The notes under the pieces were generated by a model. That model saw only the letters and a program-made list of their open reading frames with translations, searched no databases and was not told the origin of the DNA. 64,000 bases of DNA from Candidatus Peribacteria bacterium (GTDB lineage: Bacteria > Patescibacteriota > Gracilibacteria > UBA1369 > LOWO2-01-FULL-3): contig CALRGV010000003.1 of NCBI GenBank assembly GCA_943358175.1, forward strand, positions 34,941-98,940, read 5' to 3'. Position numbers and translations under genes: made by a program. Below are positions 5,515 through 46,071 of this stretch, piece after piece (within the stretch, counting starts at the first letter, position 1; every line of letters starts with the position of its first letter).

Positions 5515-5515
5515 T

Positions 5516-5746
5516 TTAAATGTCTTTTAGTTGTTCTTCTGCGGATGGTAGTTTGGAAAGATCTATCAAGTCTAAAGCTTTATCGAGCATGGCAATGGAG
5601 ACATCCAGGCTGGATCTCTTGGTCAGAAAATAGTATTTTATAAGATAAATTATAGTTGCAGTTTGTGTTCCCAATCCTTCTTCTGAGCGGATGAGGTCTA
5701 ATTCGTCTTTGATTTTGTCGTCGACTTTTAGCATGATAGATTTCAT
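5516..5746 (-). CDS. small putative ribbon-helix-helix antitoxin/regulator
   Basis: 76 aa. The N-terminal IMLKVDDKIKDELDLI is RHH-like. Its stop lies 1 nt before the toxin start (5516/5514), and a palindromic operator lies just upstream. Confidence 0.35.
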   Translation of the reverse strand: MKSIMLKVDDKIKDELDLIRSEEGLGTQTATIIYLIKYYFLTKRSSLDVSIAMLDKALDLIDLSKLPSAEEQLKDI

Positions 5747-5757
5747 AAATGATAGTG

Positions 5758-5793
5758 GTTAGTATATAATTTTTATATAAATATTATATACTA
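5758..5793. promoter_or_regulatory. perfect 12-bp inverted repeat (candidate operator of the toxin-antitoxin operon)
   Basis: ttagtatataat (5758-5769) and attatatactaa (5782-5793) are exact reverse complements with a 12-nt spacer. They are flanked by direct repeats aatgatagt at 5747-5755 and 5792-5800. The element sits 12 nt upstream of the start at 5746. Confidence 0.5.
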
Positions 5794-6014
5794 ATGATAG
5801 TTTTGTCGTCAATTGACCTATCTGTATCTAGTAAATCATGCAAAGTTAAAATAATTCTAAATTCGGTGCGGATGCGCTTGACTTGCGTGGGTGAGTAATG
5901 GTGTAGAATATATTTGTAATCTTATAAAATAACAAAAATGTCCTATATCCGGAATAAATTGCCGTCCTGGGGAGTGAGTTTAATGGGCGGAAAAGATTTA
6001 ATGGCTTTGCAAAT

Positions 6015-6047
6015 AATAAAAAAGACCCGCTTGCGCGAGTCTTTTTT
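6015..6047 (-). terminator. bidirectional rho-independent terminator downstream of HU gene
   Basis: Stem agacccgc (6023-6030) / gcgagtct (6035-6042) with one mismatch and loop ttgc. An A-run lies on one side and a T-run on the other. A second short hairpin, cccggc-tagg-gccggg (6063-6078), directly abuts the hup stop. Confidence 0.55.
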
Positions 6048-6630: not shown

Positions 6631-9033
6631 ATGTCAAAAAATTTAGTGATTGTAGAGTCCCCGGCAAAGGCAAAAACGATCTCAAGATTCTTGGGAAGCG
6701 ACTATAAAGTGTTGGCTTCGATGGGTCATGTAATGGATTTGCCTAAATCAAAAATGAGCATTGATGTGGAAAATGATTTTAAGCCGGACTATGTGGTTTC
6801 CGAGGAGAAGAAAAAAGTGGTACAGCAATTAAGAGATGAATTGAAAAAGGCGGAGGAACTTTGGATCGCAACTGATGAGGACCGTGAAGGAGAGGCTATT
6901 GGCTGGCATTTATTGGATGCGTTGAAAGTTAATACAAAAAAAACTCCCACCCATAGAATTGTATTTCATGAAATTACGGAGGGAGCGATCAAGGATTCCT
7001 TGAAACACCCTCGTGATATTAATCAGCATATAGTGGATGCGCAGCAGGCAAGGAGGGTTTTGGATAGATTGGTTGGTTACGAATTGTCTCCTCTGCTTTG
7101 GAAAAAGATTCGTTATGGGCTTTCCGCAGGACGTGTGCAGAGTGTGGCGGTGCGTTTGGTAGTGGATAGGGAGCGGGAAATTTTGGCTTTCAAACCAGAA
7201 GAATACTGGACCGTGATTGGAAATTTTGAAAAGAAAGATAAGTCTTTGAAGGACCATGAAAAAAACTTCCAAGCGGAATTACAGAAATTTCAGGATAAAA
7301 AATTGGAGATTGTGAATGGAGAACAGGCGGAAAAAGTCTTGAAGGATATTGATGGGGCTGATTATAAAGTAATTTCCGTGGAAGAAAAGGAGACGAAGCG
7401 ATCGCCGGCCGCACCGTTTATTACTTCCACTTTGCAACAAGAGGCTTCCCGCAAGATGGGTTTTGCTGTGAAGAAAACTATGATGGTGGCTCAGAGATTG
7501 TATGAAGGTATTGATACTGGATCGGGGCAGACAGGTATGATTACTTATATGAGAACAGATAGTGTAAATCTTTCTGATTTTGCTTTGAAAGCTGCAAAGG
7601 AAGTGATTACGAAGCTTTTCGGCCCGCAATACGCCTTGGATGAACCGCGCAAGTATAAGGGCAGAAAGAGTGCTCAGGAAGCGCATGAGGCGATTCGTCC
7701 GGTGGATTTGAGTATGACTCCGGATATGGCCGCTAAATTTTTGGACCATGATCAGTCCAGATTGTACGAATTAATCTGGAAAAGAACCGTGGCTTGTCAG
7801 ATGAAAGAGGCGATTTTGGCCAAAGTTGGAGCAGATATTAATGCGTTTAAAGGGGCATCGGATACGGGATATAGTTTCAGGGCAACCGGTCAGACCGTGG
7901 TATTTCCCGGTTTTATGGAGGTTTATATGGAGGGTCGTGATCATGAAGAGGAGGAAGCTCAGGATGGTGAGAAAATTTTGCCAAAATTGGTCGAGGGAGA
8001 AATGGTGGATTTGAAGGATTTGGTGAATACTCAGCATTTTACGAAGCCGCCGGCGAGATATACCGAAGCGTCTTTGGTGAAAAAATTGGAAAGCGAGGGT
8101 ATTGGTAGACCGAGTACATATGCTCCGACAATTACTACGATTATGACTCGCGGATATATTGAAAAAGATGGAAAGGCTTTGAAGCCGACAGATGTGGCAA
8201 TGGTGGTGACGGATATGTTGGTGGAAAATTTCCATGAAATTGTGGATTATAAATTTACGGCGGAAATGGAGGAAAAATTGGATACCATTGAGGAAGGGAA
8301 ATTGGAATGGGTGCCGATGATCAGGGCTTTTTATGAGCCATTTCATAAGAAAGTTGTAGAGAAGGATGAGACTTTGAAGAAAGGAGATATGATTAAGGAT
8401 GAGACAAGTGAGATGTGTGAAAAATGCGGTTCTAAAATGATGATAAAATTGGGACGATTTGGGAAGTTTTTGTCCTGTTCCAATTATCCGGAATGTAAGA
8501 ATGCCAAGCCCTTGGATGGGGCCAGTGGAGCACCCGGAGCGGCAAAAGTAATGACGCCGGAAGAAGAAAAAGCGGTGGAGGAACTGAAGGCTAAACATGC
8601 GGATACCAAGTGCGAAAAATGCGGCAAGCCAATGGAAATAAAGTCAGGCAGATTTGGCCCTTTCTTGGGTTGTAGCGGTTATCCGGATTGTAAAACTATC
8701 GTGTCCATAGTGGTGTCTTCAGGAGTGAAATGTCCAAAATGTGGAGAAGGTGATTTGGTTGAACGTCATACTAAAAGGGGCGGCAAAATTTTCTGGGGCT
8801 GTAATAAATTTCCAAAATGTAAGCTGGCTACGTGGAATAAACCGGTGGATAAATGTGTGAAATGTGGAGGACTTCGAGTGGAGGATAAAAAATCAGGCGA
8901 AGTGAAGTGCATGGATTGTGAAATGGAGAAAAGGCCGGAGTATAAGGCGAAAGTGGTCGCGCCAAAAGGGAAGGCGAAAGCAAAGCCTGCAGCTCGCGCA
9001 AAGAAGGCGAAGAAGGAAGAAAAGAGTGAGTAA
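6631..9033 (+). CDS. topA: DNA topoisomerase I with multiple C-terminal zinc ribbons and Lys-rich tail
   Basis: LVIVESPAKAKTISRFLG Toprim start, ATDEDREGEAI and ITYMRTDS (active-site Tyr region). There are four CxxC...CxxC modules (CEKCGS.., CEKCGK.., CPKCGE.., CVKCGG..) and a KAKAKPAARAKKAKKEEK tail. Confidence 0.95.
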   Translation: MSKNLVIVESPAKAKTISRFLGSDYKVLASMGHVMDLPKSKMSIDVENDFKPDYVVSEEKKKVVQQLRDELKKAEELWIATDEDREGEAIGWHLLDALKVNTKKTPTHRIVFHEITEGAIKDSLKHPRDINQHIVDAQQARRVLDRLVGYELSPLLWKKIRYGLSAGRVQSVAVRLVVDREREILAFKPEEYWTVIGNFEKKDKSLKDHEKNFQAELQKFQDKKLEIVNGEQAEKVLKDIDGADYKVISVEEKETKRSPAAPFITSTLQQEASRKMGFAVKKTMMVAQRLYEGIDTGSGQTGMITYMRTDSVNLSDFALKAAKEVITKLFGPQYALDEPRKYKGRKSAQEAHEAIRPVDLSMTPDMAAKFLDHDQSRLYELIWKRTVACQMKEAILAKVGADINAFKGASDTGYSFRATGQTVVFPGFMEVYMEGRDHEEEEAQDGEKILPKLVEGEMVDLKDLVNTQHFTKPPARYTEASLVKKLESEGIGRPSTYAPTITTIMTRGYIEKDGKALKPTDVAMVVTDMLVENFHEIVDYKFTAEMEEKLDTIEEGKLEWVPMIRAFYEPFHKKVVEKDETLKKGDMIKDETSEMCEKCGSKMMIKLGRFGKFLSCSNYPECKNAKPLDGASGAPGAAKVMTPEEEKAVEELKAKHADTKCEKCGKPMEIKSGRFGPFLGCSGYPDCKTIVSIVVSSGVKCPKCGEGDLVERHTKRGGKIFWGCNKFPKCKLATWNKPVDKCVKCGGLRVEDKKSGEVKCMDCEMEKRPEYKAKVVAPKGKAKAKPAARAKKAKKEEKSE

Positions 9034-32335: not shown

Positions 32336-33373
32336 ATGGCTAAAGAAAAATTACTTTCTACACAACTGGAACCTGTAGATTGTTTGGCTGAAGTAAGTGC
32401 TGAATTAGTGAGTATTGCCCCTGGAATTGAAGAGGGCGAAATTCGTGATTTAAATTTGTTTTTGACTCCTTCGGCAGAGATTGATGGCATTCAAACTCAA
32501 TTGCAGCAAGGGATTTTGCGACATATGCATCACAGAAGTGTAGAATTACCAGATAGATATAATTCAACAAATGAAGCCGGAGTTTTCAGTTGTAGAAGGC
32601 TGAAGGGAGCTGGTCTTTATAGTGGCCCAAGTGAAGAGTGGTTACACAAAGTAAGGAATGTAAAAAAAGATCAAACCGGATTAGTTCTTGGTTTACAGTC
32701 ATTGCCAGAATTTCAAGGCGCTTTTGATGCTCATACAAGACTTGTTCAAATGGGAATTGAGACTGAATTTCCTCTCGGCGCTCTCAAGCTTGGTGAAATT
32801 ATTTATCAAAATAGAGATGGTGTTTCCAGAGTGGCAATTGGTGAGGCATTTGATGATGCCGGCCTGCCGCCTGAGTATAAAGAAATTCCTTTCGTAATTA
32901 GGGTTGATGCGATTGGTATTAATCATCGTCTTAAGGATTACATTTTTGCAGGGGAACTTCTCTACAACGCTGAACTAGATACCGAGAAAGTGAGAGCTAT
33001 GTTGATGGAAGACGTGACAGCCTACTTACTACAAGAAGCAAAAGTTTTAGGAAATGACTTGCCAGACATTGAGGGAAATTTAGATTTGTACCTAGAATTT
33101 ATTCTAAAGAGAATTTATAAAAACGTTGCATTGCTTCACAAAAATGGGGGAGTGCACGGACAGCTTACTGAACAAAATTTAACAATGGATGGAAAATTTA
33201 TTGATTATGACACTTTGAAGTGGCTTTCGGGAGATATTTTTGAAGAAAAAAGACAGGCAGATCTTGTTAGACTTGAAGTTAGTGCAAGAGCTTTTCTACA
33301 GGTGTGGACAAAGGATCCTGGCAAAGTTGAAAAACTTTTAGAAACTGCTAAAAAAGAATATGGAAAATTTTGA
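32336..33373 (+). CDS. hypothetical protein, possible protein-kinase-like/APH-like fold
   Basis: 345 aa. The C-terminal ALLHKNGGVHGQLTEQNLTMDGKFIDYD resembles the lH..g..HgDl...N......iDfd catalytic segment of Kdo/APH/RIO-type kinases, but has Gln where the catalytic Asp is expected. Confidence 0.3.
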   Translation: MAKEKLLSTQLEPVDCLAEVSAELVSIAPGIEEGEIRDLNLFLTPSAEIDGIQTQLQQGILRHMHHRSVELPDRYNSTNEAGVFSCRRLKGAGLYSGPSEEWLHKVRNVKKDQTGLVLGLQSLPEFQGAFDAHTRLVQMGIETEFPLGALKLGEIIYQNRDGVSRVAIGEAFDDAGLPPEYKEIPFVIRVDAIGINHRLKDYIFAGELLYNAELDTEKVRAMLMEDVTAYLLQEAKVLGNDLPDIEGNLDLYLEFILKRIYKNVALLHKNGGVHGQLTEQNLTMDGKFIDYDTLKWLSGDIFEEKRQADLVRLEVSARAFLQVWTKDPGKVEKLLETAKKEYGKF

Positions 33374-34325
33374 AAGACGTACAAATGATCTCGGAGATAA
33401 TGAGAGGTTGGTGCTATTTCTAGGTACCGAACGAGGCCTTCAAGTAATGCAAAGGATAGTTCAGGACAGAATTGGTGAAGTGGCCGCTGTTTGTGTGCAA
33501 TATGATACTGGGTATGGTGCTCAGGCAAGTGAAGAAATCGCCAGAGTAGCAAAAGAGGCAGGTGCAGATGTCTACTCTTCTAATGATGTGAAATCTACTC
33601 AATATGCTGAATTAATAAGAAGATATGATGCCAATACAGCTCTTTGTATAAATTGGCGAAAGCTTTTTCCTATGGATGCTGTGAATGCTGCACACAGGGG
33701 GCTCACTGTAGCTCATGATAGTTTACTGCCACATTTGAGAGGATTTGCCCCATTAAACCATTCACTAAGATTGGGAGAAAACAAAACCGGGGTAACACTC
33801 TTTTACGCAGCTAAAGAAACGGATTCAGGGGATATTATTGGTGCCAAGGAAACTGCAATTGGCAGTGATGAATATGTGAGAGAGGTGAGAGATAGGGTTA
33901 CTGGATTGACTGTAGAATTAGTTTCGGAAGAATTGCCTAGGATATTGGCCGGTAGATCTGTGGGATCACCACAGGATGAATCAAAAGCAACTTTCGGGGT
34001 GAGACTTACTCCAGATGATGGACGCATTGATTTTTCTAGAACCAGAAGAGAAATATTCAATTTAATTAGGGCCACATCTCATCCATATCCGGGAGCTTTT
34101 ACTGGTTTGGAAGGTAGAGAAATGAGAGTATGGACAGCTTCTTTGCCTGAAGATACTCCAGTGTTAGCAACTACAATTCCAGGAAGAGTAGTGAAAAGAG
34201 AAGAGAACAGGGGTGTTTTTGTTTCTGCCGGTGACGGTGCAATTCTACTGGAAAATGTAGAAATAAATGGAGATAACGCTAGTGCAGATGCCTTTATCAG
34301 AAATCATTCCACAACCCTCAAATAA
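33360..34325 (+). CDS. formyltransferase (Fmt/ArnA-N-terminal type; putative sugar N-formyltransferase)
   Basis: VAHDSLLPHLRGFAPLNHSLRLGENKTGVTLFYAAKETDSGDII (the HxSLLPxxRG...D motif set), plus a C-terminal domain PYPGAFTGLEGREMRVW. The start overlaps the upstream gene by 14 nt. Confidence 0.8.
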   Translation: MENFERRTNDLGDNERLVLFLGTERGLQVMQRIVQDRIGEVAAVCVQYDTGYGAQASEEIARVAKEAGADVYSSNDVKSTQYAELIRRYDANTALCINWRKLFPMDAVNAAHRGLTVAHDSLLPHLRGFAPLNHSLRLGENKTGVTLFYAAKETDSGDIIGAKETAIGSDEYVREVRDRVTGLTVELVSEELPRILAGRSVGSPQDESKATFGVRLTPDDGRIDFSRTRREIFNLIRATSHPYPGAFTGLEGREMRVWTASLPEDTPVLATTIPGRVVKREENRGVFVSAGDGAILLENVEINGDNASADAFIRNHSTTLK

Positions 34326-35351
34326 ATGAAAGAAACACTACTTATTACAGGAGCTGGTGGATATGTGGGAACACATTTAGTTGAGCAAGCTTTAGATAAA
34401 GGTTATCGCGTCAAAGCGCTTGACACCTATGTTTTTGGCAAAGATAAAATGGCTCACGTTGAGGCGAGAGATGATCTAACAATGATTAAGGCTGACATTA
34501 GAGGAGTAGGTAAAGACTTGTTTAAAGATGTAGATTTTGTAGCGGATTTAGCAGGGTTTTCAAATGATCCTTCAGCAGAAATTGATCCAGATCTTACGAG
34601 GTCAGTGAATTTTGGTGGATGTGCAAATGTAGCGAAAATGGCGAAGGGAAGTGGTGTTAAACGTTATGTGGAAATGTCTTCTTGCTCCGTTTATGGAGCC
34701 AATGAAGGTATCTGTGATGAATCTACGAGTCCCAATCCACAATCTTTATATGCACAAATAAAAGCTGAAGTAGAAGAGCACCTTATGGAACTTTCTGATA
34801 ATGATTTTTGCGCTACAGCATTAAGGAATTCTACATGTTTTGGACTGAGTAATCGCATGAGATACGACTTAGTTGTAAATCTTATGTCTTTGAATGCTTT
34901 TGAAGATAGGAGTTTGAAAGTTTTTGGAAGCGGCAACCAGAGAAGACCTCTAATTCACGCAGCAGATTCTGCCGCAATTGTATTACATTTACTTGAGCAA
35001 GATCCTTCATTAGTTCGTGGGGAAATATTTAATATAGGTAGTGAAAATACTAGAGTTATAGATTTAGCGGATAGAATTCGTGGCGTTGTTGGTGATGCCC
35101 TTGGTGAAGAAATAGGAGTTGAACACGTAGGAGAAAACACAGACATTAGAGATTATGAGGTTTCTTTTGCTAAATTTACAAATAGATTTGGAATTGTAAC
35201 AAGTTTATCGGTAGAGGACGGATCACGTGAAATAATTAGAGCCTTGATGGGGGGAAAAGCTTTGCCCAATCTAGACACTATGACTTTGCAATTTTATCAA
35301 TCATTAATGCATAAATATGGAAGTTCCTTTTTATCGACATTCGGTCAATAA
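34326..35351 (+). CDS. NAD-dependent epimerase/dehydratase (extended SDR)
   Basis: LLITGAGGYVGTHL, SSCSVYG and YAQIK (YxxxK). The start immediately follows the formyltransferase stop. Confidence 0.8.
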   Translation: MKETLLITGAGGYVGTHLVEQALDKGYRVKALDTYVFGKDKMAHVEARDDLTMIKADIRGVGKDLFKDVDFVADLAGFSNDPSAEIDPDLTRSVNFGGCANVAKMAKGSGVKRYVEMSSCSVYGANEGICDESTSPNPQSLYAQIKAEVEEHLMELSDNDFCATALRNSTCFGLSNRMRYDLVVNLMSLNAFEDRSLKVFGSGNQRRPLIHAADSAAIVLHLLEQDPSLVRGEIFNIGSENTRVIDLADRIRGVVGDALGEEIGVEHVGENTDIRDYEVSFAKFTNRFGIVTSLSVEDGSREIIRALMGGKALPNLDTMTLQFYQSLMHKYGSSFLSTFGQ

Positions 35352-36453
35352 AGACGATATAGCTCGAGTTGTGTCTACCCTTGAGGGGATGTTTTTGACG
35401 ACCGGAGGAGTTACTACTGAGTTTGAATGTAAATTTGCGGATCTTTTTGAAGTGAATCATTGTATTGGAACTACCAATTGCACAAGTGCCGCTGAATTAG
35501 CTTTAAGAATTTGGGATGTAGGTCCAGGCGATGAAGTTATCGTTCCTACGATGAGTTATGTAGCCACGGCTCAATCAGTGGCGCTACGCGGGGCAAAACC
35601 AGTTTTCGTGGACAGCGATGGGCAAACAGGTTTGATAGACTTAAATCAAATAGAAGCGGCTATTACGGAAAACACGAAAGTCATTATGCCGGTACACTTG
35701 TATGGAGTGATGGTGGATATGGTTGCTCTTAAGGTGATTGCAGATAAACACGGATTAAAAATTTTAGAGGATAGTGCTCACGCTGTAGTCTCATCGAGAG
35801 ATGGAATTAAACCAGGGCAAATGAGTGATGCTGCAGTTTTTAGTTTTTATGCTACTAAAAATATTACCAGTGGAGAAGGAGGAGCTTTAATTTGTAACGA
35901 TGATAAATTTGCTGAGGATTTTCGTCGCGGTACTTGTTGTGGAGTGACAAAAACGGCTCATAGCAGACGTAAAGAGGGAGAGAAAGCCTATGTTGGTTAC
36001 GACAGTGTTCAAGTTGCCGGGAAGTGCAATATGACCAATATTCAAGCAAGTTTGCTCATTGGCCAGATAGATAGACTTCCTATGGACCGAGCAAAAAGAG
36101 GTGAATTAGTTGCACTATATAGAAAACTTTTAGCAGACTTTGGTCCTGTGGAATTGCCTCATGCACCAGATGGTATAGATAGTTCACACTACGTGATGGT
36201 CGCTTTACTCCAAGATGGAACAAGAGATGGTATTTTTAGGACTTTTGGAGAAAAAGGAATTGGTTGCGCTGTTAATTTTGATCCAATCCACTTGAAAACA
36301 ATTTTTAAACAGTTGAGTGGTTATAAAGAAGGTGATTTTCCAGTTGCTGAAAATTGGGGAAGAAGGTGTATTACATTACCTCTCTATAACGGACTAGAAG
36401 AAGAGCAGGTGAGATATGTAACTGATACGATTAAAGCAGCTTATGGAAAATAA
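35317..36453 (+). CDS. DegT/DnrJ/EryC1/StrS-family PLP-dependent sugar aminotransferase (AT1)
   Basis: N-terminal VPFYRHSVNKDDIARV..., EDSAHAV, and FSFYATKNITSGEGGALI (catalytic Lys). It overlaps the SDR gene by 35 nt. Confidence 0.85.
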   Translation: MEVPFYRHSVNKDDIARVVSTLEGMFLTTGGVTTEFECKFADLFEVNHCIGTTNCTSAAELALRIWDVGPGDEVIVPTMSYVATAQSVALRGAKPVFVDSDGQTGLIDLNQIEAAITENTKVIMPVHLYGVMVDMVALKVIADKHGLKILEDSAHAVVSSRDGIKPGQMSDAAVFSFYATKNITSGEGGALICNDDKFAEDFRRGTCCGVTKTAHSRRKEGEKAYVGYDSVQVAGKCNMTNIQASLLIGQIDRLPMDRAKRGELVALYRKLLADFGPVELPHAPDGIDSSHYVMVALLQDGTRDGIFRTFGEKGIGCAVNFDPIHLKTIFKQLSGYKEGDFPVAENWGRRCITLPLYNGLEEEQVRYVTDTIKAAYGK

Positions 36454-37729
36454 ATTACAAATTTTAGGAGCTGCCCAAGCATTTGGATTTGGAGGGATTA
36501 GTGAAATGTGTGCAATTGAGGGAGCCCTTAGAATAGACCCGAGATCTGAAGATTGCACTGTGCACATGATTGAAAATACACAGTTCAAAGCTGTTGTAGC
36601 TGGATCCAGGCAAAGATTTCAATTACATAGTGGTGATATTTTTGATAGTGATCAATTTAAGGATGTTGATGTGGTAGTTCCAAGTTATGATACGGCAGCT
36701 GTATTCTATGGGTGGTTCAATAATTTGCCAGTTTATTTTTACGATGGAATGCTTTGGTTTTGGGATTTTGAAAAATACGAGCAAAAATTAGATGCTGAAA
36801 TTTCAGAGCTTGAATCATTAAAGGCTTCTTCTAACTTGGAAGCTTTGAAACAAAAATATCAAGAATATTTAGGGAATGATTTTCATTTCACTGTTTTAAT
36901 TGCCTATCATTTAGCAAAAAAAATTTATGCGAGAGGGGCTTTAGGCGTAAACGAAAGAGTTTCAGCAATGGGGGAATTAGGTAAAAAAATTCAAGTGATA
37001 GGGGCAATGATAGATCCTTTAGTTGATCCTAACGAGAAAAGCTCTGAAGGTGAACACGTATTGGTGACACTGAGTGGCAGTTTAGCTCCAACATTAAGTT
37101 TCGAGCAGAACATGGTTTTTGCCAGAGGGGCATTGGCCTTTGCTCGTGAGGCTCATGACAAGTTCGAAGTGGATATTCCATTTATTTTTTCTTGTCATCC
37201 AAAAATTTTCGAGCAACTGACGAAGGAAGGATCCTGTGATTCTTTACCTAATAATTTCAAGGTTGTTCCAAGCTTTCCCTATGAAGAAAATTTGAGAATG
37301 ATCAGAGATGCTTATGCTGTTTTTGCTTCACCAGGATTTTCTACTGTTCAAGAGGCTGCTCATTTTAGAACTCCATTATTTTTCTTGCCGGAGCAAAATG
37401 GAGGTCAACCAACAGGCTTTCAGACTTTGAAGAAAGCTGGATATCCAACAGAACATAATCTCACGGTTACTGATAAAATATATGGAGGTGATTGCAACAT
37501 TGGAGATTACGACACTCCGCGATTATACAGAAATGTTGGTGAATTATGGAGTGACGAAATGGCTGAAGTGAGAGAAGGAGTTTTGAGAAGCTTTGTAGAT
37601 GCGTTGAGAGACAAAGATGAAAGGGAAGCGCTTACAAATGGTCAGAGAGAAGCCGTTTCCAGTATGATTGGTGGTTTTGATGGCGCACGGGAAATGGTGA
37701 ATGATTTACTCAGTGATCTACTGAAATGA
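36443..37729 (+). CDS. hypothetical protein, possible GT-B fold (MurG/PseG-like) enzyme
   Basis: 428 aa. The C-terminal AVFASPGFSTVQEAAHFRTPLFFLPEQNGGQP resembles the G..t..E....g.P.i..P....Q motif of GT28/GT1 enzymes. The N-terminal half is not recognised. Confidence 0.35.
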   Translation: MENKLQILGAAQAFGFGGISEMCAIEGALRIDPRSEDCTVHMIENTQFKAVVAGSRQRFQLHSGDIFDSDQFKDVDVVVPSYDTAAVFYGWFNNLPVYFYDGMLWFWDFEKYEQKLDAEISELESLKASSNLEALKQKYQEYLGNDFHFTVLIAYHLAKKIYARGALGVNERVSAMGELGKKIQVIGAMIDPLVDPNEKSSEGEHVLVTLSGSLAPTLSFEQNMVFARGALAFAREAHDKFEVDIPFIFSCHPKIFEQLTKEGSCDSLPNNFKVVPSFPYEENLRMIRDAYAVFASPGFSTVQEAAHFRTPLFFLPEQNGGQPTGFQTLKKAGYPTEHNLTVTDKIYGGDCNIGDYDTPRLYRNVGELWSDEMAEVREGVLRSFVDALRDKDEREALTNGQREAVSSMIGGFDGAREMVNDLLSDLLK

Positions 37730-38700
37730 ATCAAAAAAACTACTTAAATTTTGCTGAAGGAGAGGCTGGTGTCTATCGTGATGGAGAGCTTATTCCATTT
37801 GCGGAAGCACATCTTGGTAGTGGAGAACATACGGATTCTACTTTAATTGTAACTTGTTTTAATCGTGCCCATACTATTAAGCAAGCTATTGAAAGTGCGT
37901 TGAGATGCCAGCAAGAAAAAGGATCCATTGATGTTCTAGCCGTAGACGATGGGTCTACAGATGGAAGTGTCGATATCCTGAGAGGTTTTGCCCAACAAAG
38001 ACTCATTAAATTAGTAGCATTGGCAAATAATTCCGGTTCCGAAGCTTTGCCTAAGAATATTGCAGCCTTCTTAGCAAATTCAGATTATTTATCCTATTTA
38101 GATAGTGATGATCGCATAGGAGAAGTAGATGCTTTTGATACATCTCTAGCTGCACTTAAGGGAAAGGATGAATTTGTAATGAGTGTTTCAAACTTAGTAT
38201 TTGAATTGGGTTGTACTCTCGATGAAGTGGCGGCAAATATGCCATGGTTACTTGATGTTGATAATTATGAACCATCAGCAGTTATTAGAAATACTGTAGC
38301 CAAGCAATACAAAATGAGAGTTGCGAAAGAACATTCAGTATTTGAACTCTTGAACCATGGCTACTACGATGCTTTTAAACTAATGAGAAGAAGTGCATTT
38401 TTAAAGAGTGGAGGAGTAGTAGAAGATATGGGTTCATGTGGAGATTTTGGTACTTATCTGCGACTAAATCGTTTTGGTAGGTGTTTAGCCATTCCTAGGG
38501 ATTTTTATGTCTATGTGATTAATGGCGAGAATGATAGCTTTTATTCCGATGGCAAAAGACAGTGGCTAGAAGCTCAACACCGATCTTTTTCCTTAGGCGA
38601 AATTCGTCACAGGGGAATTAAATATGATGAATTACAATCTCATTGCGAACCGGAGTTTTTTACCAGGTACAAATTTACTCGCGCAGAAGTTGAAGAATAA
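37726..38700 (+). CDS. family 2 glycosyltransferase
   Basis: LIVTCFNRAHTIKQAIESAL...VLAVDDGSTDGS...SYLDSDD. ATGA overlap with the upstream gene. Confidence 0.8.
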   Translation: MNQKNYLNFAEGEAGVYRDGELIPFAEAHLGSGEHTDSTLIVTCFNRAHTIKQAIESALRCQQEKGSIDVLAVDDGSTDGSVDILRGFAQQRLIKLVALANNSGSEALPKNIAAFLANSDYLSYLDSDDRIGEVDAFDTSLAALKGKDEFVMSVSNLVFELGCTLDEVAANMPWLLDVDNYEPSAVIRNTVAKQYKMRVAKEHSVFELLNHGYYDAFKLMRRSAFLKSGGVVEDMGSCGDFGTYLRLNRFGRCLAIPRDFYVYVINGENDSFYSDGKRQWLEAQHRSFSLGEIRHRGIKYDELQSHCEPEFFTRYKFTRAEVEE

Positions 38701-39427
38701 ATTGATGATCTCTTGGATCATATAAAGTTTCACCTCCATTCGCTATTTGGGCCATTTCAGCAAGTTGTGATTGTGATTGAAAGTGATAGTGTTCGAAAAC
38801 TTTTGGATCAAAATATTGTAAGTCTATTTGCTGACTTGCGTATGCTGCCATCGCTTCCGCTTTTCTGGAATCTGGAGGCACAGCCATTGATTGCCATGAT
38901 TTATGTCGGGCTATTCTCTCATTATGAGTAATTTCCTCCCCCTTTTTTGAATAGAGTGGTGTCTCACAAACTGTGATGTTATTTTGAGTTTCACTAAGTA
39001 TTTTCCAGATTGCTGCCACAACGAGATCGTGATCCAAATGACCACCTTCATAAGAATGAGTGATGATGAGATCAGGATCTAATTCTTTAATTATTCCCCT
39101 TACTCCACTGAGAAGTTGAGTAATTTGTAGATGAAGGCGGGAATCTGTTAGCCCTGCAAAATGTAATGGTCGGCTAATGCCTGAAATATCTGCAACCTTT
39201 TTTGCCTCTGCCCGTCTAAAGGCAATATATTCCGGGCCATATAGATGCGGGGTATTTGGATAGTAGTATTCAGGAGAATCTTCCTCCAGAGGCGCTCCAT
39301 CAGTGACAAACGCTAAGGATAGGAGCTGAGAACATTCGCGCATAGCATGAGTAGCTCCGATAACCTCATCATCGGGATGTGCATATATTGCCAGTGGGCT
39401 TTTTGATTTAAAAAACATAAGGAACAA
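38675..39427 (-). CDS. PIG-L/LmbE-family N-deacetylase
   Basis: LAIYAHPDDEVIG and HSYEGGHLDHD zinc-ligand motifs. It is the only minus-strand gene in the island and overlaps the GT2 3' end by 26 nt. Confidence 0.8.
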   Translation of the reverse strand: MFLMFFKSKSPLAIYAHPDDEVIGATHAMRECSQLLSLAFVTDGAPLEEDSPEYYYPNTPHLYGPEYIAFRRAEAKKVADISGISRPLHFAGLTDSRLHLQITQLLSGVRGIIKELDPDLIITHSYEGGHLDHDLVVAAIWKILSETQNNITVCETPLYSKKGEEITHNERIARHKSWQSMAVPPDSRKAEAMAAYASQQIDLQYFDPKVFEHYHFQSQSQLAEMAQIANGGETLYDPRDHQFILQLLRE

Positions 39428-39474
39428 AGGTACGTTTTTTGGCTTTAACTTGTCAAGTGGTATATATTTTAGAC

Positions 39475-40197
39475 ATGAATGATGAATACTCGATTTTATT
39501 CGACAAATATTTGAAACTCAGTGACGAGAAGAAAGCTTTAAACGACTGTGTTTTTAAGGCTATAGAAGATTCGTTTGGGAGAAAGTCCTTAGATATTTTA
39601 GATGTAGGATGTGGCGAGGGGAAATTGAGTAGTTCCTTAGCAAAAGAAGGCCACAAAGTTTCCGCTATAGACGTGAGAGACTCATTTATTGAAGCTAATG
39701 TAAACTTTGAGAGTATTGGTTTTTTTGAGTATTCAACGGAGAAAAAGTTTGATCTGATCATTATGGCTTACTTTTTGTGGGAACTTCCTTTGTATAAATG
39801 GGATGATGTTTTTTTGAAATGCAGTCAAATGATTAAGGGAGGAGGGAAAATTTTTGTGGTGGATGTCTGTAATGAAGGGAAATTTGATAATATTTTTTTT
39901 GAATTCAATCTTATTCAAGATAGGGAATCTCAGGATCTTCAAGATTACTGGGAGAGATATTGTGAGAAAAAATGCGCGAGAGAAAAGAAAATCAATTTTA
40001 ATTCTTCACTTACCGCAGCTAATCCTTCCGACATATATGAAGCCATCGCTTTCTTCTTTAAAGAGCCATTATTAAAAGATATTTATATTAAGAATAAACA
40101 AGAGTTTATTGATTTTTTTGAGAGGAAAAAAAAGAAAAATGGGAAAATAATCCTAACCAGTAAACATGCTCTTGACGTAATTGGGAATACCTTGTAG
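39475..40197 (+). CDS. class I SAM-dependent methyltransferase
   Basis: ILDVGCGEGKLSSSLAKEGHKVSAIDV (motif I) and FDLIIMAYFLWE. I prefer the ATG at 39475 to the listed TTG at 39439. Confidence 0.7.
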   Translation: MNDEYSILFDKYLKLSDEKKALNDCVFKAIEDSFGRKSLDILDVGCGEGKLSSSLAKEGHKVSAIDVRDSFIEANVNFESIGFFEYSTEKKFDLIIMAYFLWELPLYKWDDVFLKCSQMIKGGGKIFVVDVCNEGKFDNIFFEFNLIQDRESQDLQDYWERYCEKKCAREKKINFNSSLTAANPSDIYEAIAFFFKEPLLKDIYIKNKQEFIDFFERKKKKNGKIILTSKHALDVIGNTL

Positions 40198-40223: not shown

Positions 40224-41126
40224 ATGGAAGACCCACAAGGCATAGAAACTAGTTTCCAAATAGTAAATAGAGTAGCTGCTCAGGATGGAAGCATTTCTAA
40301 ATATATTCTTGAGACACCTGGACAAAAAGGGACCTTTGAATTGGGGACATTTACATCAGAGGGCACTTTTGATATTTGTGTTTCAACTATGGCTGGCTGT
40401 CCTTTACAGTGTCAGTTCTGTGCCATTCCGTATAGTGAAATACCATATGAAAGAAAACTCTCAGCTGGAGAGTTACATGAACAGGTATCTCTTGCCTTTC
40501 AGAACAGAGGAGAAATCGAAAATGTAGTGGTTGGATTTATGGGTAACGGAGAACCATTCCTCAATTTTGACGCTGTAGTTGATGCTTCATCTAGAATATT
40601 GAATGATCCAAGTCTTTCAATTAGTTCATTGAATATATCCACTACCGGAGTAAGACCTGAAAGAATTTCTGAGCTTGCAAATACTGATTTTGGGAGATCT
40701 GGAAGAGGGAAGATTCAGTTCAGTTTGCTTTCTCTTGATCCAGCAATACGTAATAAATTTATTCCTAAGGTTAAATCTCTGGAAGAGTGCCTACCTCACT
40801 TAGATTATTTTGCAGCCACCACTGGACAACCCGTGAAGTACAACGTGATGTTAGTTGATGGACTTAATGATTCTATTGAACACGCAAAGGAGTTAGCAAA
40901 ATTTATTCAGGCAGCACCACATTTAAGACGAATAAAGGTTTCTACATTTAATCCCTTCCCCGGGATTGAGATGAAGCCAGCAACCGCAGAAAAATTTGAA
41001 TCTTTCATCGCTCATTTGGAGTCACAGGGAGTAGATGTGAAAGTATTTAAAGGAGATGCAGACGAAAAAGTTTTGGCAAGTTGTGGGCAAATGAGAGCAA
41101 GAGTTGGCAGAATCTTAACTCAATAA
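40224..41126 (+). CDS. RlmN/Cfr-type radical SAM methyl synthase homolog lacking the N-terminal accessory domain
   Basis: DICVSTMAGCPLQCQFC (extra Cys, six residues, then CxxxCxxC), GFMGNGEPFLN, NISTTGV, FSLLSLDPAIRNKFIP, STFNPFPG and LASCGQM align block by block with RlmN. Only about 57 aa precede the first Cys. Confidence 0.8.
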   Translation: MEDPQGIETSFQIVNRVAAQDGSISKYILETPGQKGTFELGTFTSEGTFDICVSTMAGCPLQCQFCAIPYSEIPYERKLSAGELHEQVSLAFQNRGEIENVVVGFMGNGEPFLNFDAVVDASSRILNDPSLSISSLNISTTGVRPERISELANTDFGRSGRGKIQFSLLSLDPAIRNKFIPKVKSLEECLPHLDYFAATTGQPVKYNVMLVDGLNDSIEHAKELAKFIQAAPHLRRIKVSTFNPFPGIEMKPATAEKFESFIAHLESQGVDVKVFKGDADEKVLASCGQMRARVGRILTQ

Positions 41127-41725
41127 TGATGTTAAACCGAATAGTTCTTGCATCAAGTAATCCTGAAAAGCAAAGAGTTGCCAATGAAGTTTGGAGGCCT
41201 GACATGCAGGTTTTATCCCCGCGTGATTTTGGTTATCAATTACCAGATGACATAGAAGGCGAAGATGATTATTCAACAAACGCACGAATCAAAGCTGATT
41301 GGGTAGGTGGTCGCGTTAAATTGCCTGTGATAGCTGATGATAGTGGTATGGAGATTAAAGGATTGGAAGGAAAGCCTGGTGTTAGCACTCGCAGATGGGC
41401 TGATGGATCAAATGACGAAAGACTTATCACGAGGACTGTAGAAGAAATAAGTAGGCTTTCCGAAAGTGAACGTGCTTGTACTTTTAGAATTTGCGCTATC
41501 TATAGAGATGTTAATGGAAAGACTACAGAAGTTGTGGAACAAGATAATGGAGTGCTCTTGCTTGAACCTCAAGGAGATATTTTGCCAGGCCACCCTTTGG
41601 CCTCACTTCTATATCTACCAGAATATGGTGCTACTTTAGCTGAACTAAGAAATAACCCAGATTTTGTAGCCAAAGATGTACGCGCTCACAAGCGGTTAAA
41701 AGAATTATTGTTAAAATCAATTTAA
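41126..41725 (+). CDS. HAM1/RdgB-family non-canonical NTP pyrophosphatase
   Basis: IVLASSNPEKQRV and PVIADDSGMEIKGLEGKPGVSTRRWA. The start overlaps the upstream stop (TAATG at 41124-41128). Confidence 0.75.
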   Translation: MMLNRIVLASSNPEKQRVANEVWRPDMQVLSPRDFGYQLPDDIEGEDDYSTNARIKADWVGGRVKLPVIADDSGMEIKGLEGKPGVSTRRWADGSNDERLITRTVEEISRLSESERACTFRICAIYRDVNGKTTEVVEQDNGVLLLEPQGDILPGHPLASLLYLPEYGATLAELRNNPDFVAKDVRAHKRLKELLLKSI

Positions 41726-41726
41726 T

Positions 41727-42884
41727 ATGGAAGATTTAAAAGTGCCAGAAAGGGTAATACCTGCCGCTCAAATACATTTTCCGGAAGAAGATATTGTCGC
41801 CATGCAAAGTGAGTTTGCTGATATTTTGAGGACAGGACAGCTTGTCTTAGGAGAAAGAACCAAAATTTTCGAGAGAGAATTTGCTGACTATTTAGGTGCA
41901 GATAAAGCTCTAGCGGTAAATAGCGGCACTTCTGCTTTAGAAATTGCTATGAGGTGTATTGGAGTTGAAGGGAAAAATGTAATCGTCCCTGCAAATACTT
42001 TTTATGCTACTGCCGGTGCCGTATTACATGCCGGTGGAAATTTGAAATTTGGAGATATCGAAAGTGAAACTTTTGGATTAGACAGTGAGAATGCATCTAG
42101 ATTAATTGATGAAAATACTGCTGCAATAGTGGTAGTACATATTGGAGGAACTCCCTCTCGCGACTTGATGAAATTAAGACAGCTTTGTGACGAGAGAGGA
42201 ATTAAATTAATTGAAGATAGCGCTCATGCTCATGGCTCTTCAGTGAATGGTCAAAAAGTTGGAACCATTGGAGATGTAGGAACCTTTTCATTTTTCCCTA
42301 CAAAAGTAGTGACTAGTGGAGAAGGTGGAATGGTAGTTGCTAAAGATCCACGCGTAATTGAAGAAGGACGTATTTATAGAGACCAAGGAAAAGCATCCGG
42401 AGGAAGAAATTTCCATACGCATCAAGGCTATGCCTGGAGAATGAGTGAAATTCATGCCTTGCTTGGTATTTCACAATTAAGGAGATTAGATGAATTTATC
42501 GATCATAGAAAAATGATTGCTCGCATTTATGACGATGGTTTAAATGGATTGCCGGATTTAAGTCCAGCGGTAATTCCTGCCGGTTCAGAAAGTAATTATT
42601 ATAAGTATGTTGTAAATTTGAGGCCTTCAATTAATAGAGAATTATTAAAAGCAAAGATGAAAGAATTAGGAGTTTCGCTAAGTGGTGAAGTTTATGCCGA
42701 TGGACTACATTCTCAACCTGTTTTTCAGAATAAATTTGAGGGAGGAGAAAATGGATTTCCTAACGCGGATCATTTTTGTGCAAATCATATTTGCTTACCT
42801 GTCTCTGCAGTCGTGAGTGAAGAAGATGCTAAATACGTAATTGAAAAATTATATGAATTTTGTGGATATTCCAAAACAAGATGA
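41727..42884 (+). CDS. DegT/DnrJ/EryC1/StrS-family aminotransferase (AT2)
   Basis: LGERTKIFEREFADYLG, NSGTSALEIA, EDSAHAHG, and FSFFPTKVVTSGEGGMVV (catalytic Lys). Confidence 0.85.
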   Translation: MEDLKVPERVIPAAQIHFPEEDIVAMQSEFADILRTGQLVLGERTKIFEREFADYLGADKALAVNSGTSALEIAMRCIGVEGKNVIVPANTFYATAGAVLHAGGNLKFGDIESETFGLDSENASRLIDENTAAIVVVHIGGTPSRDLMKLRQLCDERGIKLIEDSAHAHGSSVNGQKVGTIGDVGTFSFFPTKVVTSGEGGMVVAKDPRVIEEGRIYRDQGKASGGRNFHTHQGYAWRMSEIHALLGISQLRRLDEFIDHRKMIARIYDDGLNGLPDLSPAVIPAGSESNYYKYVVNLRPSINRELLKAKMKELGVSLSGEVYADGLHSQPVFQNKFEGGENGFPNADHFCANHICLPVSAVVSEEDAKYVIEKLYEFCGYSKTR

Positions 42885-43950
42885 ATCACTTCAGGCTGAA
42901 ATTTTAACTGCAATAGCTGATATTATTCGTCGTGGAGATTTTATTTTGGGACGAGAAGTCGGTGAATTGGAAGAAATGCTCAAAGACTATTTAGGGGTTA
43001 AGAATGCCATTCTAGTTTCTTCAGGAACGGATGCAATGGCCTTAGCGCTGAGAGCTCTCGATTTACCTAAAGGCAGCTCTGTAATAACTACTCCATTTAC
43101 ATTTTTTGCCACTAGCGAAGTGATTTTAAACGAGGGGCTCATACCTAAATATGTTGATATAGATCCATCTACTTATAATATTTCACCAGAAGCTATTGCT
43201 GCTGCGATTGATTATAATACTTCTGCTATTATGCCAGTTCATATTTTTGGAGGGCCATGTGATATAGAAGGAATCATGAGGGTTGCAAACAAGCAGGGAC
43301 TCCCTGTAATTGAGGATTGCGCTCAAGCTTTTGGAGCAAGCGTAGGCGGAAAAATGGTGGGAAGTTTTGGTCAGTTCGGATGCTATTCATTTTATCCTAC
43401 AAAAAATTTAGGAGCATATGGTGATGCTGGTTTAATGGTTACTGATGATGACGCTATGGCCGTAAAAATTAGAATATTGAGAAATCAGGGCTCTGCTGCT
43501 CCATACAGACATGATTTTGCAGGATTTAACTCTAGGTGCGATACGGTTCAGGCGGCTATTTTAAAAGCAAAACTGCCACATGTTAACGCATTGAATGATA
43601 GACGTAGAGAAATTGCAGCACGTTATAGAGAAGGTCTCCGGAAAGTTAAAGGATTAATTTTGCCAGAAGAATCTGCAGGCACTAATCATGTATATCACCA
43701 ATTTACTATTCAAGTAGAAGCGCGAGACGATTTGAGAAAAGCTCTAAGCGAGCAAGGAATTCCCACCGCCGTTTATTATGATATGGGTTTAAATGAACAA
43801 GAGGCTTTAAGTGGTATTGAGTCATCCGTTTATTTGCCACAGACAAAAGAAGTTTGTTCACGTGTCTTATCCTTGCCAATTCATCCAGGCTTAACTGAAG
43901 AAGATGTAGCTAGAGTAATTACCAATGTAAATAAATTATTAGATGTCTGA
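42853..43950 (+). CDS. DegT/DnrJ/EryC1/StrS-family aminotransferase (AT3)
   Basis: MNFVDIPKQDESLQAEIL..., EDCAQAFGA, and YSFYPTKNLGAYGDAGLMVT (catalytic Lys, WecE-like context). I prefer the ATG at 42853 to the listed TTG at 42841. Confidence 0.85.
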   Translation: MNFVDIPKQDESLQAEILTAIADIIRRGDFILGREVGELEEMLKDYLGVKNAILVSSGTDAMALALRALDLPKGSSVITTPFTFFATSEVILNEGLIPKYVDIDPSTYNISPEAIAAAIDYNTSAIMPVHIFGGPCDIEGIMRVANKQGLPVIEDCAQAFGASVGGKMVGSFGQFGCYSFYPTKNLGAYGDAGLMVTDDDAMAVKIRILRNQGSAAPYRHDFAGFNSRCDTVQAAILKAKLPHVNALNDRRREIAARYREGLRKVKGLILPEESAGTNHVYHQFTIQVEARDDLRKALSEQGIPTAVYYDMGLNEQEALSGIESSVYLPQTKEVCSRVLSLPIHPGLTEEDVARVITNVNKLLDV

Positions 43951-44986
43951 ATTTTGCGTAGAAAAACTAGGTCTATTCCCGCAGAAATTAGCAGCGGTTC
44001 GTGAAGCCCGGAATGGTATTGTTGACACTAGTTATCCAGTGAGCGTGGAGCTTTCTTTGACCGACAAGTGTAACTTTGAATGTGATTGGTGTTCTGATCT
44101 CATGCTTCGTGCAAAGCAAAATGGTCACATGCAAGAAAGAGTAGTTTATAGCTTACTCGATGACCTTGCTGAAGGTGGTACAAAAGGTGTGGTTATTGAA
44201 GGTGGTGGTGAACCAACTTTACATAAAAGTTTTGCAAACATTACAAGAAGAATTGGTGAAACCGGAATGGCCGCAGGCTTGATTACTAATGGAAGTAAAT
44301 TTGATTATGAAGACGTTTTTGGCGTTTTTGAATGGGTGAGAGTGAGCTTAGATGTTTCTTCTCCTGCTCAAATGAACGAGTTGAAATCTAGACAAAAAGC
44401 CATGTTCGATAGAGTGATAGCAAATATTGAAAGGATGGCTAGATTAAAAACTCACACCGTCTTGGGAGTTTCGTACATTATCACCAGAAAAACTAGAGAG
44501 GGAATTGCTGAAATGGTCCAACAATTAAGAGATATGGGAGTAGATTATGTGCAAATTAAACCGGTAGTTGGGCAGCCTCAACTTTCTCTAGATAATTATT
44601 CTGAATTTGAAGATTTGCGGAAATATACAAGAGATGGATTTAAAGTTTTTGTTGATGCATTGAAAGAGAATACTACGAGGGGAAATGCCGGGCTACCTTG
44701 TACAGCTCACAGCTTATCATCAATTGTTGGAGCAAATGGTTCTGTCTATTTATGTGGAAGACTTAATTCTTATCCAGACTGGCCGGCAATTGGTAATATA
44801 AACGACGCTTCATTTAATGAAATTTGGAATAGCTCTGAAAGATTCAGGCAAGCAAATTTAACTTTAGATAAAGATTTTTGTGCTGCAAAATGTCCAGAAT
44901 GTAGATTAACTAAATTCAATGTAGCGCTCGATAAGGGAGAGGATCTTACTCCACCTGATGATGTTAAAACCCCTAATTTTATTTAA
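43943..44986 (+). CDS. radical SAM enzyme with Cys-rich C-terminal (SPASM/twitch-like) extension
   Basis: LSLTDKCNFECDWCSD (CxxxCxxC) and VIEGGGEPTL. The C-terminal Cys cluster is CTAHS...YLCGRL...CAAKCPEC. It overlaps AT3 by 8 nt. Confidence 0.75.
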   Translation: MSEFCVEKLGLFPQKLAAVREARNGIVDTSYPVSVELSLTDKCNFECDWCSDLMLRAKQNGHMQERVVYSLLDDLAEGGTKGVVIEGGGEPTLHKSFANITRRIGETGMAAGLITNGSKFDYEDVFGVFEWVRVSLDVSSPAQMNELKSRQKAMFDRVIANIERMARLKTHTVLGVSYIITRKTREGIAEMVQQLRDMGVDYVQIKPVVGQPQLSLDNYSEFEDLRKYTRDGFKVFVDALKENTTRGNAGLPCTAHSLSSIVGANGSVYLCGRLNSYPDWPAIGNINDASFNEIWNSSERFRQANLTLDKDFCAAKCPECRLTKFNVALDKGEDLTPPDDVKTPNFI

Positions 44987-46071
44987 TGAGCGAAGAACCC
45001 TTAAGAGAAGTAAGAAATCAAAATTTGGCTCTAGCATATGCCCCAGTTGTTAAAAACAATATGGAGGAAGAAGGTGATGATTTTGGAATTCCACTTATAG
45101 ATTTATATGTTAACGATGCGTGCAATTTACGATGCAATTTTTGTATGACAGCTTTTGGGCCCACTGTTTTGCCTGTAAGTGCTGTGCCGGTAATTGCTCA
45201 GCTTAAACCACGAGTTATAACTATTACCGGTGGTGGAGAGCCTTCAATTTATAGAGACGGTGAAAATAGAATTGATGATTTCGTAGCCGCTATTCGTAGA
45301 GAAATGGGACCTATACCAATCGGAATGATGTCCAATGGGGTGAAAGCTTTGCCAGAAGGCGTATTGAGCGAATTAGATTGGTTGAGAGTTTCTTTAAATG
45401 CTCCAAATCGTGGACTTTATAATCAAGTTCATAACAGAGATAAATTTGAGGATGTGATGAAAAATATAACGGATTATCTGAATGGGCCTTTGGAAAAATT
45501 AGGCATTGGTTTTGTTTTCAACGAATTGACTGCTCACGCTCTAATTGATTTCGCTCGTACTATATTTGATGGAATTAAACCTCAAACAGATGCAGATAAA
45601 TTTTCAGGACTTACTTTGCAGTTTAGGCCTGAAGCCAATGAGGACTATAGTAGGTTTTTGATAAATATTGGTCTGAGACAAAAATTGATTGTAGAAATCG
45701 GAGTCTTAAATGGAGAGTTTAGAGATTTTCTTCTTAAGCAAACAAATATTATGCAAGTCTTGGATAATGAATGCTTTCTGCTTCATGCTGCTTTTAGGAA
45801 TTGCTTCATATCCTTTTTACAGATGAATATTGATGCGAGAGGAGATGCTTATCCTTGTCCTCAAAAGGCGCATGAAAAAAAAGATAGCTATGGAAATATC
45901 TTCGATGATGGATTTGTCTCAGGCGTCAGAGATAGAGTGAGGCAGTCTTTTGGATGCCATAATTCAGATAGTTGTGGCGGATGTGCCCAATCAAGAGTCA
46001 ACTCCATTTATGAAGGCGTGGACTTTTCTAAACTCTCCTTTGACGGCAAGGTTAAGCCAGTTTTCTTTTAG
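44986..46071 (+). CDS. radical SAM enzyme, second copy, with Cys-rich C-terminal extension
   Basis: YVNDACNLRCNFCMT (CxxxCxxC) and ITITGGGEPS. C-terminal Cys residues are AYPCPQKA...CHNSDSCGGCAQS. TAATG overlap with the upstream gene. Confidence 0.7.
   Translation: MSEEPLREVRNQNLALAYAPVVKNNMEEEGDDFGIPLIDLYVNDACNLRCNFCMTAFGPTVLPVSAVPVIAQLKPRVITITGGGEPSIYRDGENRIDDFVAAIRREMGPIPIGMMSNGVKALPEGVLSELDWLRVSLNAPNRGLYNQVHNRDKFEDVMKNITDYLNGPLEKLGIGFVFNELTAHALIDFARTIFDGIKPQTDADKFSGLTLQFRPEANEDYSRFLINIGLRQKLIVEIGVLNGEFRDFLLKQTNIMQVLDNECFLLHAAFRNCFISFLQMNIDARGDAYPCPQKAHEKKDSYGNIFDDGFVSGVRDRVRQSFGCHNSDSCGGCAQSRVNSIYEGVDFSKLSFDGKVKPVFF

Follow-up and report, generated by a model that had tools for sequence, protein, structure and literature searches.

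The window analysed here is a 64,000-nucleotide stretch of Candidatus Peribacteria DNA (contig CALRGV010000003.1). It carries a gene for a 300-amino-acid (aa) RlmN-like protein, P0001, a member of the RlmN/Cfr family of class A radical S-adenosylmethionine (SAM) methyl synthases, and this gene is coupled to one for a HAM1-family nucleoside triphosphate (NTP) pyrophosphatase. P0001 is best explained as a neofunctionalised member of class A that has kept the whole catalytic apparatus and lost the parts that dock RNA. Together with its relatives it is best read as forming a new, rare subfamily within class A, whose substrate is probably a nucleotide. We put forward tentatively, as a little short of an even call, that P0001 acts on a free purine nucleotide with the HAM1 protein as its dedicated NTP pyrophosphatase. 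The two genes are as follows:

40224 to 41126, + strand: RlmN-like radical SAM methyl synthase of class A (300 aa) that lacks the N-terminal helical domain; E39, C52, C59/C63/C66 and C287 are kept.
41126 to 41725, + strand: paralog of the HAM1-family NTP pyrophosphatases, 199 aa; its start overlaps the RlmN-like stop (TAATG), and SHR is changed to (S/A)KD.

Judged from the sequence comparisons, the similarity of P0001 to RlmN is far beyond chance. The Pfam scan gave a Radical_SAM match, and RlmN_N (PF21016) was not found in P0001. The best NCBIfam match was RlmN (TIGR00048, E 3e-39, 134.9 bits against a cut-off of 290), which spans profile positions 69-345 of 355, and phmmer against the PDB returned RlmN 6fz6 (1.5e-21) and Cfr 9p0p (5e-17). 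With the AlphaFold2 model (predicted local distance difference test score, pLDDT, 90.1), the top Foldseek matches were the RlmN structures 6fz6 and 5hr7 (template modelling score, TM, 0.81), and Cfr 9p0p scored 0.66. An earlier sequence-only reading of this DNA had called the protein RlmN-like, and both the profile match and the structural matches bear this out. In the translated open reading frame, CVSTMAGCPLQCQFC contains C52 and then the CxxxCxxC cluster C59/C63/C66, and the C-terminal part has ASCGQM with C287. The cluster and both mechanistic cysteines (equivalent to C118 and C355 of RlmN) are therefore kept as that reading had claimed; it had counted about 57 residues before the first Cys, and P0001 has 51. 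E39 is the equivalent of RlmN Glu105, the GxGEP motif is kept, and E39, C52, C59/C63/C66 and C287 were invariant across our alignments A1/A2. In RlmN and Cfr, the enzyme's own Cys is methylated, a 5'-deoxyadenosyl radical turns the methyl group into a methylene radical that is added to C2 or C8 of adenine, and the adduct is resolved by a second Cys (PMC9692996). All parts of this mechanism are present in P0001: the [4Fe-4S]/SAM site, a Cys to carry the methyl group, a second Cys to resolve the adduct, and the Glu base. A single radical SAM domain, the RlmN/Cfr fold and the two conserved cysteines would thus place P0001 in mechanistic class A.

The N-terminal accessory domain had been suspected to be missing, with a structure model suggested as the check. 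The frame of P0001 is open for 316 codons in total, of which just 16 lie beyond the start on the upstream side, so the short N-terminus is real; the upstream methyltransferase gene stops at 40197, ahead of the start at 40224. The AlphaFold2 model opens with four beta strands, the counterpart of the RlmN sheet extension, and has no helical lobe. Taken with the absent RlmN_N match and the lack of upstream coding room, this confirmed the suspicion. The short N-terminus is common to 14 homologs of P0001 (293-322 aa).

The lobe in question is predicted to bind RNA in RlmN and Cfr (PMC2836569). In the model of a Cfr structure paper, basic residues including K27, K35, K98, R184, R185 and K250 contact rRNA (PMC12887959). 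The positions of K27 and K35 fall in the lobe that P0001 lacks, and R184, R185 and K250 align with S134, S135 and P203 of P0001. Among 30 canonical proteins the R184 position is Arg in 25, and the K250 position is Arg or Lys in 19; the latter is Pro in 32 of the 43 family members. The overall charge differs likewise: P0001 has an isoelectric point (pI) of 5.38 and a net charge of -7, against 8.89 and +7 for the RlmN of the same genome, and the median pI was 6.2 in the short group of the family and 5.8 in the distant group (both defined below), against 8.7 in canonical proteins. Furthermore, 27 near-invariant catalytic or structural positions, including five cysteines and E39, are common to the family and RlmN/Cfr (within the family, C287 is kept in 42/43 and C52 in 39/43), while at eleven positions the family has one conserved residue (80-100%) and RlmN/Cfr a different one. 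The family-specific changes include M to N108 in the GxGEP motif, E to N207, N to K238, I to S240 and R to F275, and R235 is a new invariant residue of the family. Shared and swapped residues together form the pattern that would be expected if the chemistry was kept and the substrate changed. Compared with RlmN, the 23S rRNA A2503 and tRNA A37 C2-methyltransferase (3rfa, 5hr7, 6fz6), P0001 therefore has the same fold, cluster, cysteine pair, catalytic Glu and GxGEP motif. However, it is only 25-33% identical, acidic and without the helical domain, its basic contacts and at least eight family-invariant positions are changed, and its gene lies in an accessory island, coupled to HAM1.

The genome is 1.38 Mb in size and 99% complete, and it contains canonical copies of both genes. 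A full-length rlmN of the kind the sequence-only reading had suggested looking for is present on another contig (C1:20191-21183, 350 aa) and scored 345 bits with the RlmN model, against 135 for P0001. A canonical HAM1/RdgB elsewhere in the genome scored 136.5 bits, and the copy in the island 74. The RlmN-like and HAM1 genes of the island are therefore diverged second copies. No P0001 ortholog was found in 40 relatives from the same genus, family and order, where the only matches were to housekeeping rlmN at up to 34% identity, and the neighbouring first radical SAM gene of the island (rSAM1) was likewise not found in them. The family profile had one match (200 bits) in 400 other genomes of the phylum. 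In this sole further member (G126) the neighbours are fasciclin, TenA and Cpn60, an uninformative context. As a side observation, 17 of 41 genomes (the 40 relatives and the window's own), some of them 100% complete, had no match to the P0001 query at E 1e-5. The m2A2503/m2A37 modification may be dispensable in this lineage if the family model likewise gives no match.

A profile search of 1.84 billion representatives recovered about 30 family proteins (counted at 50% identity) at 224 bits or more, followed by a plateau of ordinary RlmN at about 170 bits. The sequence-only reading had proposed a phylogeny against the RlmN and Cfr clades. In the resulting maximum-likelihood tree of 87 proteins, P0001 lies inside a 43-row clade (29 rows in a short group, 14 in a distant group), which is split from canonical RlmN and Cfr with a Shimodaira-Hasegawa approximate likelihood ratio (SH-aLRT) support of 100. 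Cfr and Cfr(C) nest within canonical RlmN in this tree. When Cfr and the family were forced into one clade, the log-likelihood was 36.6 units lower, with p 0.145 in the approximately unbiased (AU) test. Kaminska et al. noted that RlmN and Cfr are accompanied by a third, small subfamily of unknown function (PMC2836569), which may be the P0001 family.

Fusions and neighbourhoods in this family point to nucleotides. P0036 (505 aa) is an RlmN-like protein fused to HAM1, and its HAM1 half has the GHPL/SKD variant motifs of the island copy. In P0033 (548 aa) and P0037 (567 aa) the RlmN-like part is followed by a C-terminal P-loop domain that matches the nucleotide-kinase-like families AAA_18/AAA_17. 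P0065, an intermediate short form outside the 43-row clade, is fused to NUDIX. A search for fused forms of 638-2000 aa found none, which is weak evidence. Among the distant-clade loci, a NUDIX gene (L015), a nucleoside 2-deoxyribosyltransferase-family gene with a methyltransferase gene (L014), and two methyltransferase genes (L022) were found as neighbours. No neighbour was conserved by sequence in these loci; just the functional theme recurs (methyltransferase, NUDIX, deoxyribosyltransferase-like). These fusions and neighbourhoods of the relatives make recruitment of the chemistry to a nucleotide or small molecule, with HAM1 as partner, the best supported of the three alternatives offered by the sequence-only reading.

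Several other RlmN-like forms were seen. In the tree, a third short set (P0053-P0066, 270-300 aa) is placed between the family and canonical RlmN. P0051 is fused to pentapeptide repeats. P0072, for which the tree has no row, combines an RlmN-like radical SAM part with a Beta-lactamase2 domain. Most of the ESM Atlas look-alike clusters, at about 290 aa, are viral. When the family patterns were scanned against viral contigs, no member was found, and matches in phage collections were at most 31% identical and belonged to host-type or distant RlmN-like genes. One of the phages, Stenotrophomonas phage ANB28, has a 319-aa RlmN-like gene without the N-terminal lobe (L049:4992-5951; 25% identical to P0001), located within a run of tRNA genes of the phage (Ile, Pro, Leu, Thr, Ser), which suggests a phage-encoded tRNA C-methylase.

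The partner gene was also diverged from its housekeeping relatives. The stop codon TAA of the RlmN-like gene (41124-41126) shares its final A with the ATG of HAM1 at 41126; the TAATG overlap with an ITPase-family gene had thus been read correctly. The island HAM1 matches Ham1p_like (PF01725) at 74.5 bits (Pfam cut-off 22.5). Like the HAM1/RdgB/ITPA pyrophosphatases of inosine and xanthosine triphosphate (ITP and XTP), it retains the phosphate and metal motifs, namely N12/K15, NAxxKA, ADDSGM and PGxxTRRW, of which N12, K15 and D72 are invariant in the HAM1 alignment. It differs from them in being a second copy beside a canonical one, in scoring far under the equivalog cut-offs of NCBIfam (83 against 234 and 53 against 145), and in the SHR position, which reads AKD or SKD in all four cluster HAM1 copies and in the fused P0036; SHR is retained in the housekeeping HAM1 of the same genome. 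In human ITPase the 6-keto oxygen of ITP accepts a hydrogen bond from the Arg of SHR, while the 6-amino group of ATP is disfavoured by the pocket (PMC5075207). We infer that an Asp in place of this Arg would suit a 6-amino purine.

Our preferred reading of these results, with P0001 acting on a free nucleotide, can be put as a two-step mechanism. P0001 would methylate a free nucleotide at a purine sp2 carbon (C2 or C8), and the acceptor would most likely be an adenine nucleoside triphosphate. The coupled HAM1 paralog, with its remodelled base pocket, would then split the methylated NTP into nucleoside monophosphate (NMP) and pyrophosphate. This cleavage would either free a pathway intermediate or keep the analogue from RNA and DNA. 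The substrate, the methylated position and the order of the two reactions are inferred from the residues, fusions and neighbours described above.

The sequence-only reading had placed the gene pair between a SAM methyltransferase and two aminotransferases, and family matches at 39439-40197, 41727-42884 and 42841-43950 agreed with it. The island around the pair is composed of:

32336 to 39427, + strand except PIG-L: left half of the island, with genes for a kinase-fold-like protein, a formyltransferase, a short-chain dehydrogenase/reductase (SDR), a DegT aminotransferase, an Epimerase_2-like protein and a family 2 glycosyltransferase (GT2); the PIG-L deacetylase gene is on the - strand.
39439 to 40197, + strand: class I SAM-dependent methyltransferase, 252 aa; upstream partner of the pair, in the same order in L018, L019 and L021.
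41727 to 42884 and 42841 to 43950, + strand: DegT aminotransferases, downstream of HAM1.
41727 to 46071, + strand: these two DegT aminotransferases and two radical SAM/SPASM enzymes, a cassette co-inherited with the RlmN-like-HAM1 pair.

Related loci were taken from genome and metagenome collections and compared with the island proteins. The RlmN-like gene was followed by HAM1 in all five loci (L013, L018, L019, L020 and L021), at 40-70% identity, and in each the two genes overlapped or were 5-10 nt apart. Two other metagenomic lineages have the trio of methyltransferase, RlmN-like and HAM1 genes together with the island, and four have the RlmN-like-HAM1 pair. L021 (49% identity) has 14/14 island genes in identical order, L018 and L019 (70%) have methyltransferase, RlmN-like, HAM1 and DegT in this order, and L020 (51%) has the RlmN-like gene followed by HAM1. 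In L013, from a metagenome-assembled genome of Peribacteria (40%), the genes are rearranged: the RlmN-like and HAM1 genes adjoin DegT and radical SAM genes on the opposite strand, and the kinase-like, PIG-L, GT2 and Epimerase_2-like genes are present as well. The island is best explained as an accessory, horizontally mobile, biosynthetic one of the amino-sugar or nucleoside type, in which the pair and the upstream class I methyltransferase form one module.

Some further features of these loci were noted. In L013 a weak ThiI-like PP-loop protein and a GNAT acetyltransferase, encoded after the pair, take the place of the methyltransferase, and the ortholog of the second DegT aminotransferase is shortened at its N-terminus (256 aa, matching residues 136-378 only); the coordinates for this ortholog and the replacement genes are 5264-6034 (-) and 7538-8695. 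The first island gene (32336-33373) has no Pfam family and a weak NCBIfam match to Bud32 kinase (19 bits), and it is kept in L013 and L021 at 39-47% identity. The first radical SAM/SPASM protein (43943-44986) gave sub-threshold matches to MoaA (55 bits) and prokaryotic viperin (52 bits) in NCBIfam and to pVip (60 bits) in PADLOC, and its likeness to NTP-acting enzymes may be generic. A tRNA-Thr gene lies at the left edge of the island. GC skew was positive in all 2-kb bins of the window, 1-64000 (0.11-0.34), regardless of gene orientation, so the whole window lies on one replichore.

Two known systems offer functional comparisons. In the pathways of puromycin, A201A and 3'-amino-3'-deoxyguanosine, a purine NTP is tailored and the NUDIX pyrophosphatase Pur7 turns the altered NTP into NMP (PMC11641026, PMC9239236). 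Like the puromycin-type core (the NTP dehydrogenase Pur10, the aminotransferase Pur4, Pur7, Pur3 and Pur5), the island unites aminotransferases, possible oxidising radical SAM enzymes, a methyltransferase and an NTP pyrophosphatase. However, it has HAM1 where those pathways have NUDIX, and radical SAM/SPASM enzymes where they have an NAD dehydrogenase; the C-methyl synthase has no counterpart, and the analogy is one of function only. By such logic the island might make a C-methylated purine aminonucleoside or a glycosylated nucleoside, through C-methylation of an NTP, oxidation by radical SAM/SPASM enzymes, amination by DegT, cleavage to NMP by HAM1, N-methylation and addition of a formylated amino sugar, a product that we regard as rather improbable. 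The prokaryotic viperins (pVip, pVip-kinase) are radical SAM enzymes that act on free NTPs and are often fused or adjacent to a nucleotide kinase, as in P0033 and P0037. They differ in radical SAM subfamily and in chemistry, which is dehydration and not methylation. A role in defence was considered and dropped: no PADLOC model matched the RlmN-like protein, HAM1 or any of the three fusions P0033, P0036 and P0037.

The first rival to be weighed is an RNA methyltransferase of other purpose, that is, a Cfr-style or other rRNA or tRNA C-methylase that shields the producer's ribosome from an aminoglycoside-like or aminonucleoside-like product, with HAM1 clearing methylated purine NTPs from RNA turnover. 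We consider it possible but on the whole unlikely. Several points in its favour weigh at the same time against a nucleotide substrate. All characterised class A enzymes methylate RNA (PMC9692996). In phage ANB28 the short RlmN-like gene has tRNA genes around it, so the loss of the N-terminal domain alone is no proof of a lost RNA substrate. Three distant-clade genomes have a family member and no canonical rlmN, so the distant clade could be the RNA enzyme of those genomes. However, this last point is tempered by the 17/41 genomes that had no match to the P0001 query either. The SHR position of HAM1, besides, sits in a diverged C-terminal stretch that HMMER left unaligned to the PDB ITPases, and the gene contexts of the family were read for about a dozen members only. 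The island also has an aminoglycoside-like logic, with DegT and radical SAM enzymes, the PIG-L deacetylase and a glycosyltransferase, and a grouping of Cfr with the family is tolerated by the AU test. Cfr and Cfr(C), the 23S rRNA A2503 C8-methyltransferases of resistance (9p0p), share with P0001 the class A family, the two cysteines and an accessory, horizontally moving gene. On the other hand, they are only 26-28% identical to it, and the Cfr models (NF000424/TIGR04432) scored 86-90 bits, far from their cut-offs of 468-550 and under the 135 bits of the RlmN model. Cfr also retains the N-terminal lobe and a basic rRNA-binding surface (PMC12887959), while P0001 is acidic, lacks the predicted RNA-binding lobe, and has lost the contacts R184 and K250. 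With an RNA substrate it is difficult to account for the fused P-loop nucleotide-kinase-like domain and for the neighbour that resembles a nucleoside deoxyribosyltransferase. The Cfr-like self-protection that the sequence-only reading had listed second is therefore not favoured, given the position of Cfr inside canonical RlmN and the lost RNA-contact residues, although the AU test does not reject a link to Cfr.

The acceptor could instead be another sp2 carbon of a pathway intermediate, such as the base of a nucleoside diphosphate (NDP) sugar, an adenylylated or nucleoside-type intermediate, or an enol or enamine keto-sugar, with HAM1 as a generic sanitiser. The gene is embedded in and co-inherited with sugar-tailoring genes, and in L013 the pair is followed by PP-loop (ThiI-like) and GNAT genes with no methyltransferase, both of which agree with such a substrate. 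Nevertheless, we find it improbable. The distant clade has nucleotide-handling neighbours without any sugar genes, and the HAM1 fusion together with the remodelled HAM1 base pocket points to a specific NTP. C-methylation of keto-sugars is, moreover, normally the work of class I methyltransferases. That P0001 is a housekeeping RlmN (m2A2503/m2A37) which resides in the island by chance, the first alternative of the sequence-only reading, can be rejected as barely credible: its best family match is indeed the RlmN model, but far under the cut-off, a canonical rlmN lies elsewhere in the genome, the family forms a separate clade, and orthologs were found in 0/40 relatives and 1/400 phylum genomes.

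In the literature searched, no paper connects RlmN to HAM1 or describes RlmN-like genes within nucleoside clusters. RlmN matters for translational fidelity and Cfr for multidrug resistance, and class A methylases are known only as RNA enzymes. If P0001 does act on nucleotides, the methyl-Cys, Minisci-type chemistry of this class would extend to free nucleotides. It would also provide a route to 2- or 8-methylpurine nucleotides, for which, to our knowledge, a biosynthetic origin outside RNA has not been established. The family is small and soluble and only 300 aa long, so the substrate question is directly testable in vitro. A nucleotide substrate would also call for caution before each short 'RlmN/Cfr family' gene is annotated as an rRNA methylase or a resistance gene. 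If the island makes a nucleoside product, P0001 would be the first class A radical SAM methylase to act on a small molecule, and the product would be a nucleoside-type natural product from a bacterium of the candidate phyla radiation.

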